Origin: Patescibacteria group bacterium
GTDB taxonomy: Bacteria; Patescibacteriota; Minisyncoccia; Phycocordibacterales; UBA9973
NCBI GenBank assembly: GCA_018816985.1
Contig: JAHIVA010000049.1
Coordinates: forward strand, 2,466-66,465
Reading direction: 5' to 3'
Length of the DNA: 64,000 nucleotides
The position numbers and the translations under genes are program-made. The notes under the pieces were generated by a model. The model was given only the letters and a program-made list of their open reading frames with translations. It did no database searches and was not told the DNA's origin. Below, in pieces: positions 10,713 through 35,640 of the stretch (positions are counted from its first letter, which is position 1; each line of letters starts with the position of its first letter).

Positions 10713-11111
10713 GGGGATGCCAGGCATAGACAGTTGGTCTATTGTTATTGATGCATACCGAGCATGAACATAATCTCGTAAAAATTTGTTCAAATGTTAA
10801 TTGCAAAATTGACTGCTAAAGCAAAAGCTGTATTTTCTCCATACTTCGGTATGAATGATTTCGCTTTCGCTTCAGTTTCCGCTTCGGCGTAAACTGATGT
10901 CTCCCTTATAGACTTCCGATATATAAGAAGGGGCATAATATTATCGGGATAGGAAAAAGATTGCTCTAACTTTTTTCCAAAACAAAGGAGCTCGATTAAA
11001 AAATATTTGGCTCGTTTAAGAATTTTTTAATTTAAACAAAAAAAGCGTGCTATGTATGTAGACTTCTTTACAAAAATCTTCTGCACGGGGATTCGATTTC
11101 CCCCATCTCCA
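10713..11111 (+). ncRNA. ssrA: tmRNA (ssrA)
   Basis: The 5' GGGGATG pairs with the 3' CATCTCC, including a G3:U70 pair. T arm is GGGGA-TTCGATT-TCCCC and the discriminator is A. The internal tag frame GCA AAA ... GCT TCG GCG TAA (10803-10892) ends in ..SASA. CCA is not encoded. Confidence 0.85.
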
Positions 11112-11259
11112 CTGCTTCGCTAAAGCTTCGCAGTGCACAGCACAAGAAATTTAGCGCAAAAACTCTCCTAGTAAAGAGGGTTTTTGATTTTTAGCATAAA
11201 AATAAGCAGTGAGTCCTGCGAAGCCTTGGCGTAGCAGGGCCACATGCTACAATTTATTT

Positions 11260-11970: not shown

Positions 11971-12307
11971 AATTTTAATTATAACATTTTTATTTAGGGT
12001 TAATTAGATAATTTTTTGCTTCTTTTAAAAAAGCAATATCTCTTGGAACAATATAAGCACTTCCTTAGGCCTATTTTTTTTATTTAGTTATTTAACATCA
12101 TTAACTTCGTTAACATCCTAGAGAGTGAGGGTGTAAAGAGTGGTTCTATTGGTGTTGGTATTTATCCTATTTTAGTAATAAACTATCATTTGAGAGGATT
12201 CTGGGAACACTCAACCATTACCAAGTGTTAACGATCTTAAGACTCGAACATACATCAGGTTCCAGTAAATAAGTTCTAACGTCATTTATTAGTTTCCACA
12301 AACAAAA

Positions 12308-12347
12308 AAATTACCTAATTTTTCCGACCGGTAGAATTAGGTAATTT
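12308..12347 (-). terminator. Intrinsic-terminator-like hairpin (13-bp stem AAATTACCTAATT/AATTAGGTAATTT) plus T-run on the - strand
   Basis: Perfect 13-bp stem with a 14-nt loop, followed on the - strand by TTTTGTT. It is the second of two tandem terminators downstream of the small ORF. Confidence 0.5.
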
Positions 12348-12373
12348 ATTAATGTTGTTATAAATAAAAAAGT

Positions 12374-12396
12374 GGCGAGCCCGATTTGGACCCGCC
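12374..12396 (-). terminator. Intrinsic terminator of the small G+C-rich ORF
   Basis: On the - strand GGCGGGTCC-AAATC-GGGCTCGCC forms 9 bp (2 G:U), followed by AC TTTTTT. Confidence 0.6.
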
Positions 12397-22024: not shown

Positions 22025-22615
22025 TTAAAATCCCAAAGTTTTAATAATTTCTTTGTGCACTTTTTCGATTGTTTGCTCACCGTTAATAGTATAAATACTG
22101 TAACCAACTTTGTCTTTAAAATAATTCATGGCTGGGATTACATTATTTACATATTCGTTAAATCTTTGTTCTATACCCTCTTTAGTATCATCTGTTCTCC
22201 CTCGCAATAAGTTGCGTTTCATTGCTTCCTCCTTGCTTAATTCAATATAAATAATTTTTATATTCTTTCTTTTATAAAATTTCATCATCGCTTCAAAACT
22301 TTCAGACTGAGCAATTGTTCGCGGGTATCCATCAGCGATTAAACAGATTTCGTCTTTCATTCCAGAAATTAATATATTAGTAAATAAACTGGTTGTAATA
22401 AAGTTAGGTTGTAAAAACCCTTTTTCCAGAGTTTCTTTTATTATCTGTCCAGTATAACTACCACTTTCAATAACCTTTCTAAATTCAGCACCAGTTGAGG
22501 TATATAAAATATCAGATACTATGTTTTTATCTTTTAAATATTCTCGCAACAAATCAACCTGAGTTCCTTTACCCGAGCCAATTATTCCAAAAAATATAAA
22601 CGTTTGTGGTTGCAT
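22025..22615 (-). CDS. adk: Adenylate kinase
   Basis: P-loop FFGIIGSGKGTQ and DGYPRT. The start is set at MQPQTF (22615). Confidence 0.85.
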   Translation of the reverse strand: MQPQTFIFFGIIGSGKGTQVDLLREYLKDKNIVSDILYTSTGAEFRKVIESGSYTGQIIKETLEKGFLQPNFITTSLFTNILISGMKDEICLIADGYPRTIAQSESFEAMMKFYKRKNIKIIYIELSKEEAMKRNLLRGRTDDTKEGIEQRFNEYVNNVIPAMNYFKDKVGYSIYTINGEQTIEKVHKEIIKTLGF

Positions 22616-22637
22616 ATGTGTTATAATAGCACAAATT

Positions 22638-23204
22638 ATGAAAAAGGAAATTATTACAATCTGTGGGAGTTTGGGAAGCGGAAAATCAAGCACCGCAAAA
22701 AAAGTAGCCGAAGTTCTCGGTTTTCAGCATTTTTCTTCCGGAGATTTTTTTCGACAGGTTGGGCTAGAATTGGGTTTATCGATCAATGAGATAAATAAAA
22801 GAGCAGAAACTGATCCGAAGATAGATGAAATGACAGATCAAAAACTACGGGATATGCGTGACAAAGAAAAGATTGTTATTGATTCACGGACGGCTTATCA
22901 TTGGATCCCCGAGTCATTTAAGATTTACCTTGATCTTTCCACCGAAATAGCCAAAAATAGAATTTTGAATAATTTAAAAGAAAATCCATTAAGGCAACAA
23001 AGCGAAGGGACATCTACCTTGGAAGATATCTACGAAAAAATGCGGGAGAGGTTTGCCAGCGAACAAAAAAGGTATTGGGATTTATATAAGATAAACAATA
23101 CTGAAAAAAGCAATTTTGATTTAATCATCGATACAAACAAAAACAACCTAGAGCAGGTTGTTGAAATTATTGTAGCAGAATATAAAAAGTGGAGAGAAAA
23201 CTAA
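22638..23204 (+). CDS. cmk: Cytidylate kinase-like NMP kinase
   Basis: ITICGSLGSGKSSTAKKVAEVLGFQHFSSGDFFR. TGtTATAAT lies 10 nt upstream. Confidence 0.65.
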   Translation: MKKEIITICGSLGSGKSSTAKKVAEVLGFQHFSSGDFFRQVGLELGLSINEINKRAETDPKIDEMTDQKLRDMRDKEKIVIDSRTAYHWIPESFKIYLDLSTEIAKNRILNNLKENPLRQQSEGTSTLEDIYEKMRERFASEQKRYWDLYKINNTEKSNFDLIIDTNKNNLEQVVEIIVAEYKKWREN

Positions 23205-28008: not shown

Positions 28009-28052
28009 GTACAAGGTCTTGCCTTTAAGATTGCCAAGGCAAGACCTTGTAC
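28009..28052. repeat. Family B hairpin copy 1 (17-bp stem)
   Basis: GTACAAGGTCTTGCCTT-taagattgcc-AAGGCAAGACCTTGTAC in the rplN-rplX spacer. The arm core AAGGYCTTGCCTT is shared with 31239-31275. Confidence 0.85.
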
Positions 28053-30392: not shown

Positions 30393-30425
30393 TTAATAAT
30401 TATTTATAGTGAGCCTGTCGAATTA
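30393..30425 (-). repeat. Family C stop-to-start linker copy (rpsS stop to rplV start)
   Basis: mRNA sense: TAA TTCGACAGGCTCACTATAAATAATTATTAAAACA ATG. Confidence 0.75.
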
Positions 30426-30776
30426 TTTTTTCTCGCCCTTAGCGTCCTCGGAGACGGCAGTCGCAGACTTAGCTTGAGTTATTTCGGCTTCTTTCTTTTT
30501 CATTTCCAATTCTTTCTGCATCTTTCCTCCGTGCTTCATAAATTTCTTAGTTGGGGAAAATTCACCTAATCGATGCCCCACCATATCTTCCGTGACCAAA
30601 ACTTCTATATGTGTTTTACCGTTATAAATACCAAAAGTAAAACCAAGCATCTCTGGAGAAATCACGCAGGCTCTCTTCCAAGTCTTCACCATCGGAGTTT
30701 GTAACGGGTTTTTGCCGGCAATCTTTTTCAAGAGCCTTTCATCAACATTTAATCCTTTTTTGATACTTCTAGTCAT
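30423..30776 (-). CDS. rpsS: 30S ribosomal protein S19 (with K/E-rich C-terminal tail)
   Basis: MTRSIKKGLNVDERLLKKI...GIYNGKTHIEVLVTEDMVGHRLGEFSPT. The upstream 17 codons of the ORF are rejected. Confidence 0.9.
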   Translation of the reverse strand: MTRSIKKGLNVDERLLKKIAGKNPLQTPMVKTWKRACVISPEMLGFTFGIYNGKTHIEVLVTEDMVGHRLGEFSPTKKFMKHGGKMQKELEMKKKEAEITQAKSATAVSEDAKGEKK

Positions 30777-30802
30777 GTATTTTTTCTTTAGACAAACAAA
30801 AC

Positions 30803-30818
30803 GGCTCTCATTTGAGCC
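30803..30818 (-). promoter_or_regulatory. Hairpin plus U-tract at the predicted 5' end of the rpsS transcript
   Basis: - strand GGCTC-aaatga-GAGCC followed by gttttgtttg. It begins about 7-8 nt after the -10 box. Confidence 0.45.
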
Positions 30819-30825
30819 TTGAATC

Positions 30826-30853
30826 ATACTAACAAATTCAAGAAAAAAGTCAA
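30826..30853 (-). promoter_or_regulatory. Sigma70-like promoter restarting the operon at rpsS (TTGACT-16-TAGTAT)
   Basis: - strand TTGACTtttttcttgaatttgtTAGTAT is nearly identical to the tuf promoter at 35613-35640. Confidence 0.55.
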
Positions 30854-30866
30854 TAAAAACACGAAA

Positions 30867-30887
30867 GGCTCAATTTTCCTTTGAGCC
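30867..30887 (-). terminator. Intrinsic-terminator-like hairpin ending the rplB-proximal transcript
   Basis: - strand GGCTCA-aaggaaaat-TGAGCC followed by tttcgtgttttt. Confidence 0.5.
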
Positions 30888-31285
30888 GTTTAAAATATTT
30901 AAAATTGTGTGGGGTTCGGAGAGAGATAAACTCTTCCGAACCCCGAGCACTTGACGCTATTTATTGTTTGGATGCTGATACTTTTTCAAGTCGCCCCCCC
31001 CTCCTACCTTTTTTGGGAGGTAATCCCCTTGCCTCCCGGAGTTTTTTTATCATCGCCTTTTTCGTGGAGTTGCCCCTATTTTTCAAAAAAGAGTGGCACA
31101 TTTTTCAATCCTCCAAAAAGTAGTGGGAAACCTGTTCCCCCATCGGTCAAGACACCGACAGTACAAAGAACAGGCTTTATTTATCTGTAACACATATTAT
31201 CAATGCAAGCAATAGAAAATGTGGAAAACTTTCTCCTCAAGGCCTTGCCTTGGGCTCCCCTTAAGGCAAGGCCTTTTTTCGAAAA
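30888..31285. ncRNA. Unassigned structured G+C-rich non-coding region between rplB and rpsS (strand and identity unknown)
   Basis: Several stable helices, a C8 tract and no credible ORF. See the findings for details. Confidence 0.3.
31239..31275. repeat. Family B hairpin copy 2 (13-bp stem)
   Basis: AAGGCCTTGCCTT-gggctcccctt-AAGGCAAGGCCTT, immediately after the rplB stop and followed by TTTTTT on the + strand. Confidence 0.85.
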
Positions 31286-32125
31286 TTATTTATTCTTCCC
31301 GGTCTTTCTCCTAGAAACCATAAAGACATTTGAGTATTTTTTTGGTCCACGAGTTTTGCGTCCGCCGGTAACTTTACCCCACTTTGTTTTCGGTCTCTTA
31401 GTTCCGCGCCCTTGTCTGCCTTCTCCACCTCCATATGGATGGTCAACCGGATTCATTGCTGTACCGCGAACTGTCGGACGAATGCCTTTCCAGCGACTCC
31501 GTCCAGCTTTGCCGTAATTTTCCAAATGATGTTCTTCGTTGGAAACAGTCCCGACACAAGCCCAACAATTTTCATTTATTTTTCTTATTTCAGTAGAAGG
31601 CATTTTCAGATTGGTGTAACCATCAGCATTGGCCACCACTTGCGCGAAAATTCCTGCCGAACGACCAATCTTAGCACCTCCCTCTCTTTTAATTTCAATA
31701 TTATAAACAAAAGTTCCAACTGGAATATTTTTTAAAGGCAATCTGTTGCCTGTTTTAACTTCTGCTTTTTCAGAAACAATAAAAGAATCACCAGCTTTCA
31801 CAGACTTAGGTAAAATTACATATCTTTTTTCTCCATCTTTATAAACAGCCAATCCAATAAAAGCCGAGCGATTTGGATCATATTCAATAGTTTTTATTTT
31901 AGCTAAAATGTCTTTTTTATTATACAAAAAATCAACGGCGCGATAGAGGCGTTTGTGCCCGCTACCTTTATGCCTCATGGTAATACGTCCAGCACTATTT
32001 CTGCCGACGCTACGCCTGAAACCATAAGTCAGTGATTTAGTCGGTTTTGACTTGGTTAAAATTTCGCGGTAGTTCACGTTGGTCATTTGCCTTCTTGATT
32101 TGGTTGTTGGTTTGTATGTTTTCAT
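31286..32125 (-). CDS. rplB: 50S ribosomal protein L2
   Basis: GRNSAGRITMRHKGSGHKRLYR and GTAMNPVDHPYGGGEG. Confidence 0.95.
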   Translation of the reverse strand: MKTYKPTTKSRRQMTNVNYREILTKSKPTKSLTYGFRRSVGRNSAGRITMRHKGSGHKRLYRAVDFLYNKKDILAKIKTIEYDPNRSAFIGLAVYKDGEKRYVILPKSVKAGDSFIVSEKAEVKTGNRLPLKNIPVGTFVYNIEIKREGGAKIGRSAGIFAQVVANADGYTNLKMPSTEIRKINENCWACVGTVSNEEHHLENYGKAGRSRWKGIRPTVRGTAMNPVDHPYGGGEGRQGRGTKRPKTKWGKVTGGRKTRGPKKYSNVFMVSRRKTGKNK

Positions 32126-35612: not shown

Positions 35613-35640
35613 ATACTAACAAATTAAGAAAAAATGTCAA
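35613..35640 (-). promoter_or_regulatory. Sigma70-like tuf promoter (TTGACA-16-TAGTAT)
   Basis: - strand TTGACAttttttcttaatttgtTAGTAT. Confidence 0.6.

Follow-up and report, generated by a model that had tools for sequence, protein, structure and literature searches.

A putative micro-protein gene cassette at a clade-specific split in the S10/spc ribosomal-protein genes of a patescibacterium

In a 64,000-nucleotide (nt) stretch of DNA from a Patescibacteria group bacterium (contig JAHIVA010000049.1 of assembly GCA_018816985.1; here called the window), the ribosomal-protein genes rplB and rpsS are separated by 509 nt. An earlier note on the window had read this gap as a structured insert with no credible open reading frame (ORF), either a gene for a noncoding RNA (ncRNA) or a regulatory element. 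We conclude, with a probability of about 80%, that the insert is instead a previously unannotated micro-protein gene. On this reading, a compact and independent small-gene cassette fills the gap, which is a break in the S10/spc ribosomal-protein cluster specific to the clade. On the minus strand, which is the operon strand, the order of the proposed elements is the rplB stop codon, an intercistronic hairpin (H1), a promoter-like element (Px), a stem-loop in the 5' untranslated region (5'-UTR), a Shine-Dalgarno (SD) sequence, a 46-codon ORF, a terminator, a second hairpin, and the rpsS promoter and leader.

The break in the S10 cluster lies where the earlier note had placed it, between the rplB stop codon (TAA, 31288-31286) and the best start codon of rpsS (ATG, 30776). 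The last gene ahead of the break is rplB (uL2, 279 amino acids [aa]; 31286..32125, minus strand, from the ORF list), and rpsS (uS19, 117 aa; 30423..30776, minus strand) opens the unit on the other side. The small ORF in between comprises 46 codons plus a stop codon (30961..31101, minus strand), and the SD sequence GGAGGA (31109..31114, minus strand) stands 7 nt ahead of its ATG. Its predicted peptide, MCHSFLKNRGNSTKKAMIKKLREARGLPPKKGRRGGRLEKVSASKQ, has the N-terminus MCHSFLKNR..., includes the stretch AMIKKLREARGLPPK and carries a net charge of +13.

Is this ORF conserved? No homologue of the upstream 380-430 nt of the insert, before the rpsS promoter, was found among the first 160 related loci that we collected (L001-L160). 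Homologues of the cassette were obtained through the contigs that encode the closest uL2 and uS19 proteins in a large protein collection. The cassette of L163 (GCA_043809405.1; uL2 92% identical) has 73% nucleotide identity to that of the window over 224 nt (E = 4e-25), and that of L166 (GCA_965027055.1; uL2 94% identical) has 73% over 196 nt. Because the cassette of a Logan contig, L167 (SRR35119657), is identical to that of L166, the cassette has been assembled repeatedly and is not an artefact. The homologous ORFs encode 46 aa in the window, 57 aa in L163 (beginning MCFSFLKNRGGSTKKSQTHKLRMARGLPPKPGRHDQ...), and 44 aa in L166 and L167 (beginning MCRPRNKKSKPQRRALREARGLPPKPGKRSG...). The SD sequence, which reads GAGGAGGA in L163 and AAGGAGGG in L166, and the initial ATG-TGC are kept in all three homologues. 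From ATG-TGC through the core LR(E/M)ARGLPPK.G (LREARGLPPKKGR in the window, 31041-31003, minus strand), the reading frame is retained in the window, L163, and L166/L167, and indels come in multiples of three. A hidden Markov model (HMM) of the three peptides, searched against six-frame translations of all loci, recovered no peptides beyond these three, or four if the duplicate L167 is counted.

Substitutions in the ORF are largely synonymous. Over the N-terminal 33 codons of the window and L163, 13 codons are identical, 12 differ only synonymously, and 8 differ nonsynonymously. In the same codons, 25/33 amino acids are identical compared to only 68/99 nucleotides, and the proportions of synonymous (pS) and nonsynonymous (pN) differences are 0.71 and 0.20. 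When the six frames of this pair are compared, the sense frame has the lowest pN/pS, 0.28; that of the best antisense frame is 0.41, and the remaining four exceed 1. The core reads CTC CGG GAG GCA AGG GGA TTA CCT CCC AAA AAA GGT AGG in the window, CTT CGA ATG GCT CGG GGG TTA CCC CCA AAA CCG GGT AGG in L163, and TTA AGA GAG GCG AGA GGG TTA CCA CCG AAA CCA GGG AAA in L166. Its six-fold switches, CTC/CTT/TTA for leucine and CGG/CGA/AGA for arginine (CTN/TTA and CGN/AGA), are silent in the sense frame only. In the three-way comparison of the core, pS was 0.72-0.97 and pN about 0.12; rplB from the same genomes, which differs at 15-18% of nucleotides, gave a pS of 0.53-0.62 and a pN of 0.04-0.06. 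Set against these rplB values, the core suggests that the cassette was inherited vertically under purifying selection. At the level of sequence, these comparisons show protein-level purifying selection on the small ORF in three lineages. With its SD sequence and the conservation of its protein in relatives, this ORF overturns the claim that the gap has no credible reading frame.

The earlier reading, in which the insert is a structured ncRNA of 300-400 nt that annotation has missed, or else a riboregulator, and any ORF is incidental, has real observations behind it. The minimum free energy of the insert is -165.5 kcal/mol on the operon strand (z = -6.8) and -146.2 on the plus strand (z = -6.4), and on neither strand was any of 100 dinucleotide shuffles as stable. 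We recovered every helix named in the earlier note at its coordinates, and several helices are kept with compensatory changes. The G+C content of the insert (0.40-0.46) exceeds that of the other intergenic gaps of the window (0.28-0.36). It does not exceed that of the 3' end of rplB (0.47-0.50), and so the description of the insert as richer in G+C than its surroundings stands for the first comparison and fails for the second. An unusually high G+C at third codon positions of the small ORFs also fits an RNA under structural selection.

Other observations make this ncRNA reading very improbable. Searches of 30650-31450 against Rfam release 15 matched no known family at gathering or permissive (E ≤ 10) thresholds; the best permissive matches, STnc230 (26.6 bits; threshold, 50) and Spy1186876 (23.6 bits; threshold, 208), were driven by the terminator and the promoter. 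A scan of 20 related loci (L001-L020) likewise gave no match. The conserved helices, namely the intercistronic hairpin, the stem in the 5'-UTR, and the terminators, all lie at the periphery, whereas the centre is kept as amino acids while its nucleotides change. That centre evolves like coding sequence, with synonymous third-position and six-fold-codon changes. The CCTCC/GGGAGG/CCTCCC segments and the C8 tract (31037-30994), the former proposed earlier as mutually exclusive pairings, lie within codons 22-37 and encode R-E-A-R-G-L-P-P and G-R-R-G-G; the pairings are not kept in the homologues. Finally, other cassettes with the same type of promoter are unrelated in sequence, yet each tends to present an SD sequence followed by an ORF, as described next.

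Px (31184..31230, minus strand) consists of a conserved 22-mer, AGTTTTCCACATTTTCTATTGC (31230-31209), a -35 element TTGCTT (31212-31207), and an extended -10 element TG-T-TACAGA (31192-31184), which is degenerate relative to the family consensus TG-T-TATAAA. An alternative, TGATAATAT, is present at 31202-31194 (minus strand). The 22-mer recurs as AGTTTTCCAC(A/T)TTTTCTATTGC just 3' of rplB in L119, L082, and L086, and the family motif is TTGC(A/T)T, about 16 nt, and TG-N-TATAA(A/T). Profile searches recovered Px from 16 distinct loci, each time on the operon strand. In all 15 loci with the rplB stop codon on the fetched sequence, Px lies 3-169 nt past that stop; the 16th contig (L168) starts inside the spacer. 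Neither the loci (about 1.1 Mb in all) nor the 64-kb window contains a further copy. The window's own Px is matched at E = 0.036, and at E = 1.7e-10 with a longer model. In its hexamers, spacing, and conserved position, Px has what is expected of a sigma-70-type promoter, as which we predict it to act.

Fourteen Px loci extend far enough downstream to be assessed, and 13 of them have an ORF of 31-85 codons whose ATG is preceded by an SD sequence. These ORFs start 14-77 nt past Px, and 12 of the 13 peptides carry a net charge of +6 to +14. The small ORFs of the other Px cassettes are mutually unrelated, or related beyond detection. In L153 (511-1889), L156 (3843-5001), and L168 (1-528), two or three SD-led basic small ORFs stand in tandem in the slot. 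Strings of short G+C-rich palindromes of the form CCCC(T/C)...GGGG (e.g., CCCCTTGTCAGGGG and CCCCTGATAAGGGG), which look like a repeat family, were seen between rplB and Px (L086, 3843-3997; L162, 2978-3068; L164, 3027-3170).

Between Px and the SD sequence of the window lies the 5'-UTR stem-loop (31130..31175, minus strand), with an outer stem GCCTGTTC / GAACAGGT and an inner hairpin GTCGGT / ACCGAT. A consensus hairpin of 13 pairs, 3 of them with compensatory double changes, is common to the 5'-UTRs of six cassettes, and in L163 the inner stem TCGGT/ACCGA is replaced by TTGGT/ACCAA. Folding places the hairpin 7-9 nt from the putative 5' end of the transcript. Compensatory changes are found in H1, the UTR stem, and the terminator alike.

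Several observations weigh against our reading. The Px of the window has two mismatches in its -10 element and a weak score. Conservation does not extend to the C-terminal third of the peptide, the peptide length varies (46/57/44 aa), and there are just three homologous lineages. One antisense frame is also open and partly conserved (21/32 identical; pN/pS, 0.41), as a shadow frame would be, its wobble positions coinciding with those of the sense frame. G+C at third positions is 0.48-0.87 in the small ORFs of 12 Px cassettes versus 0.23-0.48 in rplB of the same loci; the highest values among slot ORFs reach 0.81-0.87 (L153, L082, and L086). This difference might stem from foreign origin, from selection on RNA structure, or from biased gene conversion at a site of frequent recombination. 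Finally, the peptide had no homologue in Pfam, NCBIfam (E ≤ 1), or PHROGs and no match in a PDB profile search (E ≤ 10). A word search of 5.8 billion clusters with the alignment of two peptides was empty, as was a phmmer search of 1.84 billion representative proteins.

The ORFs on the plus strand had been dismissed in the earlier note as shadows, and for 30881-31123 we agree: it is the antisense shadow of the real ORF at 31101-30961. As a gene it was rejected on its higher pN/pS, on the lack of an ATG in the window or L166, and on its start and stop codons, which are not conserved; in L166 the frame continues through the promoter and H1.

Could the insert be meaningless debris? It might be a decaying pseudogene, what earlier insertions at a hot spot have left behind, or a product of faulty assembly around the C8 tract. 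In favour of debris, the slot is hypervariable and a frequent site of contig breaks, and neither the C-terminal part of the ORF nor the G8 tract is conserved. We give this explanation almost no credence, since the same cassette is present in three lineages with rplB genes as divergent as stated above, and debris would not retain a 33-codon frame with a pN/pS of about 0.15-0.3. In addition, tblastx and tblastn searches of the insert against all inserts of relatives gave no gene remnant. A blastn search of the insert against phage and plasmid collections found no match.

The G8 tract (C8 on the plus strand; 31001-30994) codes for R-G-G in the nonconserved C-terminal part of the peptide. The homopolymer could reflect a sequencing error or slippage, and one base more or less would alter the C terminus to ...GGDLKKYQHPNNK (48 aa) or ...GGAT (39 aa).

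What might the peptide do? Since the searches of protein libraries returned no homologue, there is nothing from which to transfer a function, and the peptide family appears to be new. Profiles of bS21 (PF01165) and of other known small ribosomal proteins gave no match either (Pfam and NCBIfam, E ≤ 1; PDB, E ≤ 10). A single-sequence AlphaFold2 model (predicted local distance difference test score, 73) predicts one helix at residues 11-25, followed by a basic tail that begins G-L-P-P. We can only guess that such a peptide binds nucleic acid, possibly the ribosome.

Four contigs of RNA viruses (L170-L173, IMG/VR, 1.1-2 kb) that encode fragments of an RNA-dependent RNA polymerase contain KKLEARGLPPKKGQ, which is near-identical to peptide residues 19-33. 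We judged this match coincidental because the search pattern forced ARGLPPK and the motif sits inside a large, unrelated GDD polymerase. The Px pattern occurred in the viral contigs as a single AT-rich chance match.

A peptide of this kind, encoded by a small ORF with a structured 5'-UTR, a strong SD sequence, and its own promoter and terminator in a variable slot, also calls to mind a type I toxin-antitoxin-like or selfish module. The mRNA for a toxic peptide would then be controlled by a plus-strand antisense RNA, for which terminator-like hairpins at 31011-31041 and 31241-31273 could serve; our scan lists the former as a terminator-like site, and H1 followed by T6, read from the plus strand, resembles a second that the scan does not list. 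The plus-strand hairpin at 31011-31041 was rejected as a terminator: it is a by-product of the K-K and R-G-L-P-P codons and is not conserved in L163 or L166, where it is lost because its T-run corresponds to the AAA AAA lysine codons of the window. The peptide is hydrophilic and basic, with no hydrophobic or membrane-spanning stretch. We found no conserved promoter on the plus strand, and H1 recurs as an intercistronic element, for example between rplN and rplX. Taken together, these points leave a toxin-antitoxin module extremely unlikely.

H1 has a 13-bp stem, AAGGCCTTGCCTT / AAGGCAAGGCCTT (31239..31275, minus strand), with an A-run on its 5' side and no U-tract on its 3' side. It is kept in L166 and L167 with a compensatory C-G to U-A change, and is missing from L163. 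A second copy lies between rplN and rplX (window 28013-28048; chance expectation in the window, 0), and a third with matching flanks stands behind tuf in L004 (740-775); the copy in L166 is at 1431-1466. The repeat, of the form AAGG(C/T)CTTGCCTT...AAGGCAAG(G/A)CCTT, thus occupies several intercistronic sites of the ribosomal-protein cluster, with like flanks in L004, L166, and the window (ATTTTCG..AAAAGG / CCTTG.GGAGAAA). The repeat may act in processing or stability, or it may be a small palindrome that is mobile. Lacking a U-tract on the operon strand, H1 does not qualify as an intrinsic terminator, which makes read-through from rplB likely.

The small ORF is followed by a predicted intrinsic terminator (30892..30944, minus strand) with the stem GGGGTTCGGA...TCCGAACCCC (30944-30911) and the tail ACACAAUUUUAAAUAUUUU. 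Its G+C-rich stem and U-rich tail can be read directly from the DNA, as is expected of an intrinsic terminator, and the stem begins 16 nt past the stop codon. L163 has GGGGTTCCGA/TCGGAACCCC, a compensatory swap of G-C to C-G followed by U8, and the L166 stem is GGGGCT.../...AGCCCC. Beyond it is a second terminator-like hairpin, GGCTCAAAGGAAAATTGAGCC with a U-rich tail (30855..30887, minus strand), which the earlier note had placed ahead of the rpsS promoter and which our scan recovers at 30887-30867. This hairpin is specific to the window (L163 and L166 have an alignment gap there) and resembles the rpsS leader hairpin (GGCTCAAA...).

The position of these terminators bears on another explanation, in which the ORF is a regulatory leader or arrest peptide. 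SD-dependent translation would stall at R-G-L-P-P-K and set the level of transcription past the two terminators into rpsS, coupling the rpsS operon to the status of the ribosome or of elongation factor P. The Pro-Pro pair falls within the conserved core, the stop codon is 16 nt ahead of the terminator stem, and the promoter and SD sequence are better conserved across cassettes than the peptides are. The SD sequence of the window and that of L163 are also predicted to be paired with codons early in the ORF. Such sequestration is not predicted in L166, however, and the Pro-Pro pair is 17 codons upstream of the stop codon, too distant to melt the terminator; several other cassettes (e.g., L119, L086, L082, and L133) have no Pro-Pro at all. 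Moreover, rpsS has a conserved promoter of its own, and the close relatives L081, L002, L008, and L012 have no cassette and spacers of 119-133 nt. We therefore regard a leader-peptide function as quite improbable.

The promoter of rpsS is the element that the earlier note had described as TTGACT-16-TAGTAT, and both our scan and the alignment of relatives recover it: TTGACT, 13 nt, and the extended -10 element TG-T-TAGTAT (30826..30853, minus strand). It has the features of a sigma-70-type promoter and is predicted to be one. Its likeness to the tuf promoter also held, at 22/23 nt (35613-35634, upstream of tuf). A few nucleotides past the -10 element begins the leader hairpin, GGCTCAAATGAGAGCC followed by GUUUUGUUUG (30793..30818, minus strand). 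The final 60-100 nt ahead of rpsS are the sole part of the spacer that matches most relatives. Aligned, this module reads TTGAC(T/A), 13 nt, and TG-N-TAnTAT, and its leader is a 5-6-bp hairpin AGCTC...GAGCT (GGCTC...GAGCC in the group of the window) followed by a U-run. An nhmmer model placed the promoter and leader directly 5' of rpsS in 54 related loci, which supports at the sequence level the proposal that rpsS and the genes downstream are restarted. Across 44 sequences, 82.8% of cells in the hairpin pair, the outer A-U is replaced by G-C in 9, and the covariation score was reached by 0/500 shuffles. The leader hairpin, which matched no Rfam family, is a candidate 5' stabiliser or attenuator of the rpsS-rplV-rpsC unit. 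In this clade uS19 has 113-134 aa, with a Lys/Glu/Ala-rich C-terminal tail (MQKELEMKKKEAEITQAKSA..., window 30423-30520) that is missing in typical bacterial uS19.

We then asked how far the break extends. By its uL2, the window belongs to Candidatus Nomurabacteria/Paceibacterota (Patescibacteria). Homologues in Nomurabacteria/Paceibacterota metagenome-assembled genomes (MAGs) are 90-94% identical, the best species-representative and metagenome loci are 90-92% identical, and one uL2 (P0124) is 100% identical. The rplB-rpsS spacer was measured in about 160 fetched loci. Among loci with uL2 identity of ≥83%, rpsS was in reach in 38, with a spacer of ≤30 nt in 0, of 31-200 nt in 9, and of >200 nt in 29; in 3 more, rpsS was >3 kb away. 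At 60-83% identity, the corresponding numbers were 38 loci in reach, with 3, 7, and 28 in the three spacer classes, and 21 more with rpsS >3 kb away. Of the 26 outgroup loci (<60% identity) with rpsS in reach, 22 had spacers of ≤30 nt, 3 of 31-200 nt, and 1 of >200 nt. No close relative has a spacer of ≤30 nt, and with the rpsS promoter and leader in 54 loci this indicates a clade-wide break in the operon. The split between rplB and rpsS characterizes the clade rather than this one genome.

Within the clade, the junction that had been called normally invariant is a hypervariable slot, with spacers ranging from 66 nt to >3 kb. The minimal spacers (66-133 nt; L081, L002, L008, L012, L091, and L097) consist of the rpsS promoter module, usually with a terminator hairpin ahead of it. 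In distant relatives, a reading of the translations finds in the slot pyrimidine-synthesis-like and pilin-like genes and, directly upstream of rpsS, a dgkA-like membrane protein. The last is a small gene with the motif LSEKKRFSI..R.KS..HA.RG....T.HN.W, seen in L021-L026, L034, L040, L046, and L109; by reading, this protein of distant Paceibacteria resembles diacylglycerol kinase (DgkA). Independent assemblies break at or just past the 3' end of rplB or inside the spacer (L161, L162, L164, and L168; also L088, L089, and L011), which fits strain-level heterogeneity that defeats assemblers. In the literature, we found no description of a split S10 operon or of small ORFs between rplB and rpsS in Candidate Phyla Radiation (CPR) bacteria, and a promoter-anchored, hypervariable slot of SD-led small ORFs at this junction seems not to have been described before. 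Elsewhere in the window, we noted a transfer-messenger RNA (tmRNA) gene (10713-11114, plus strand; 117.6 bits) and two long AT-rich stretches free of ORFs, at 11971-12385 (415 nt, downstream of the tmRNA) and 22108-22637 (530 nt).

How unusual is an SD sequence in this genome? A 5-mer SD was found ahead of 0/54 long ORFs in the window, and many genes have a TATAAT-like hexamer just 5-10 nt ahead of the start codon, a survey that is approximate because the first in-frame start codon was taken for each long ORF. Examples are the starts at 22638(+), 20547(-), 15783(-), 3915(-), 41026(-), 45384(-), and 52263(-). This arrangement suggests that leaderless or near-leaderless mRNAs are widespread among the genes of the window.

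The nearest analogy to the small ORF is rpsU (bS21) of Bacteroidia. In Flavobacteriia/Bacteroidia, rpsU is led by a strong SD sequence within a translation system that is SD-blind (PMC9976891, PMC7797042, PMC13000453), and in Bacteroidia it is autoregulated through free anti-SD (PMC9976891, PMC7797042). Both are genes for small, very basic proteins with a strong SD sequence where other genes have none. The cassette differs in having no sequence likeness to bS21 or to any Pfam or NCBIfam model, and in occurring in some species only, with unrelated small ORFs in its place in others. The small ORF lies inside the ribosomal-protein cluster; ribosomes of Patescibacteria are not known to sequester the anti-SD, and the window has no 16S gene. 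By this analogy, the break in the Nomurabacteria/Paceibacteria subclade might be a dedicated slot in which a conserved strong promoter and an SD sequence drive exchangeable, rapidly evolving, highly basic micro-proteins. These would be the sole SD-dependent genes where translation is otherwise free of SD sequences (mostly leaderless or A-rich), and could act as lineage-specific ribosome-associated proteins or as regulators whose synthesis reports free anti-SD, much as in the autoregulation of bS21 in Bacteroidia but with proteins that can replace one another. We consider this extension of our reading unlikely.

Four other kinds of system invite comparison with the cassette. The miniature ribosomal proteins bTHX, bS22, and bL37 were found on ribosomes through structure determination or proteomics. 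The small-ORF peptide resembles them in size (25-50 aa), extreme basicity, narrow phylogenetic range, and the ease with which gene callers miss them, and differs in being known here from sequence and conserved in three lineages only. The type I toxin mRNAs hok, fst, txpA, and aapA are autonomous small-ORF units with a folded 5'-UTR, a strong SD sequence, and an intrinsic terminator. The cassette is likewise an autonomous unit in an intergenic slot that varies between strains; unlike these toxins, its peptide is not hydrophobic, and no conserved antisense promoter or RNA was found. In integration hot spots, two highly conserved flanking genes bracket a segment that differs between close relatives. 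The content of the rplB-rpsS slot differs in the same manner, but the slot lies inside a normally contiguous S10 operon, and many of its occupants share a promoter type while their ORFs are unrelated. Lastly, as a conserved 5' element of a ribosomal-protein transcript, the rpsS leader hairpin with its U-tract is akin to ribosomal-protein operon leaders, whereas no Rfam family has a match anywhere in 30650-31450 or in 20 related loci.

On our reading of a small-gene cassette, the small-ORF unit would be transcribed from Px and/or through read-through from rplB. Because the -10 element of the window's Px (TACAGA) is weaker than the family TATAAA, cotranscription with rplB may matter. The peptide would be translated through SD/anti-SD pairing, presumably because the A-rich or leaderless initiation of other genes is not available to an mRNA that is G+C-rich and structured. 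The terminators would end the cassette transcript as well as any read-through from the S10 operon, insulating the two ribosomal-protein units, and with the rpsS promoter and leader, transcription would begin anew for rpsS, rplV, rpsC, and the genes that follow.

These results correct an attractive ncRNA call: a G+C-rich, highly folded, and seemingly ORF-free island in an AT-rich CPR genome was revealed as a probable gene only by comparative codon analysis. They also show that the S10/spc cluster is split between rplB and rpsS throughout this clade, with a promoter for restart and a hypervariable filling; the cluster serves CPR phylogenomics and binning as a contiguous block of markers. Several of the sampled assemblies break exactly at this junction, and the split thus bears on MAG assembly and on inference from operons. 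The promoter-anchored series of unrelated, SD-led, basic small ORFs may offer a tidy, compact natural system in CPR bacteria for the study of the origin and turnover of micro-proteins and for asking whether Patescibacteria confine SD-dependent initiation to special genes.

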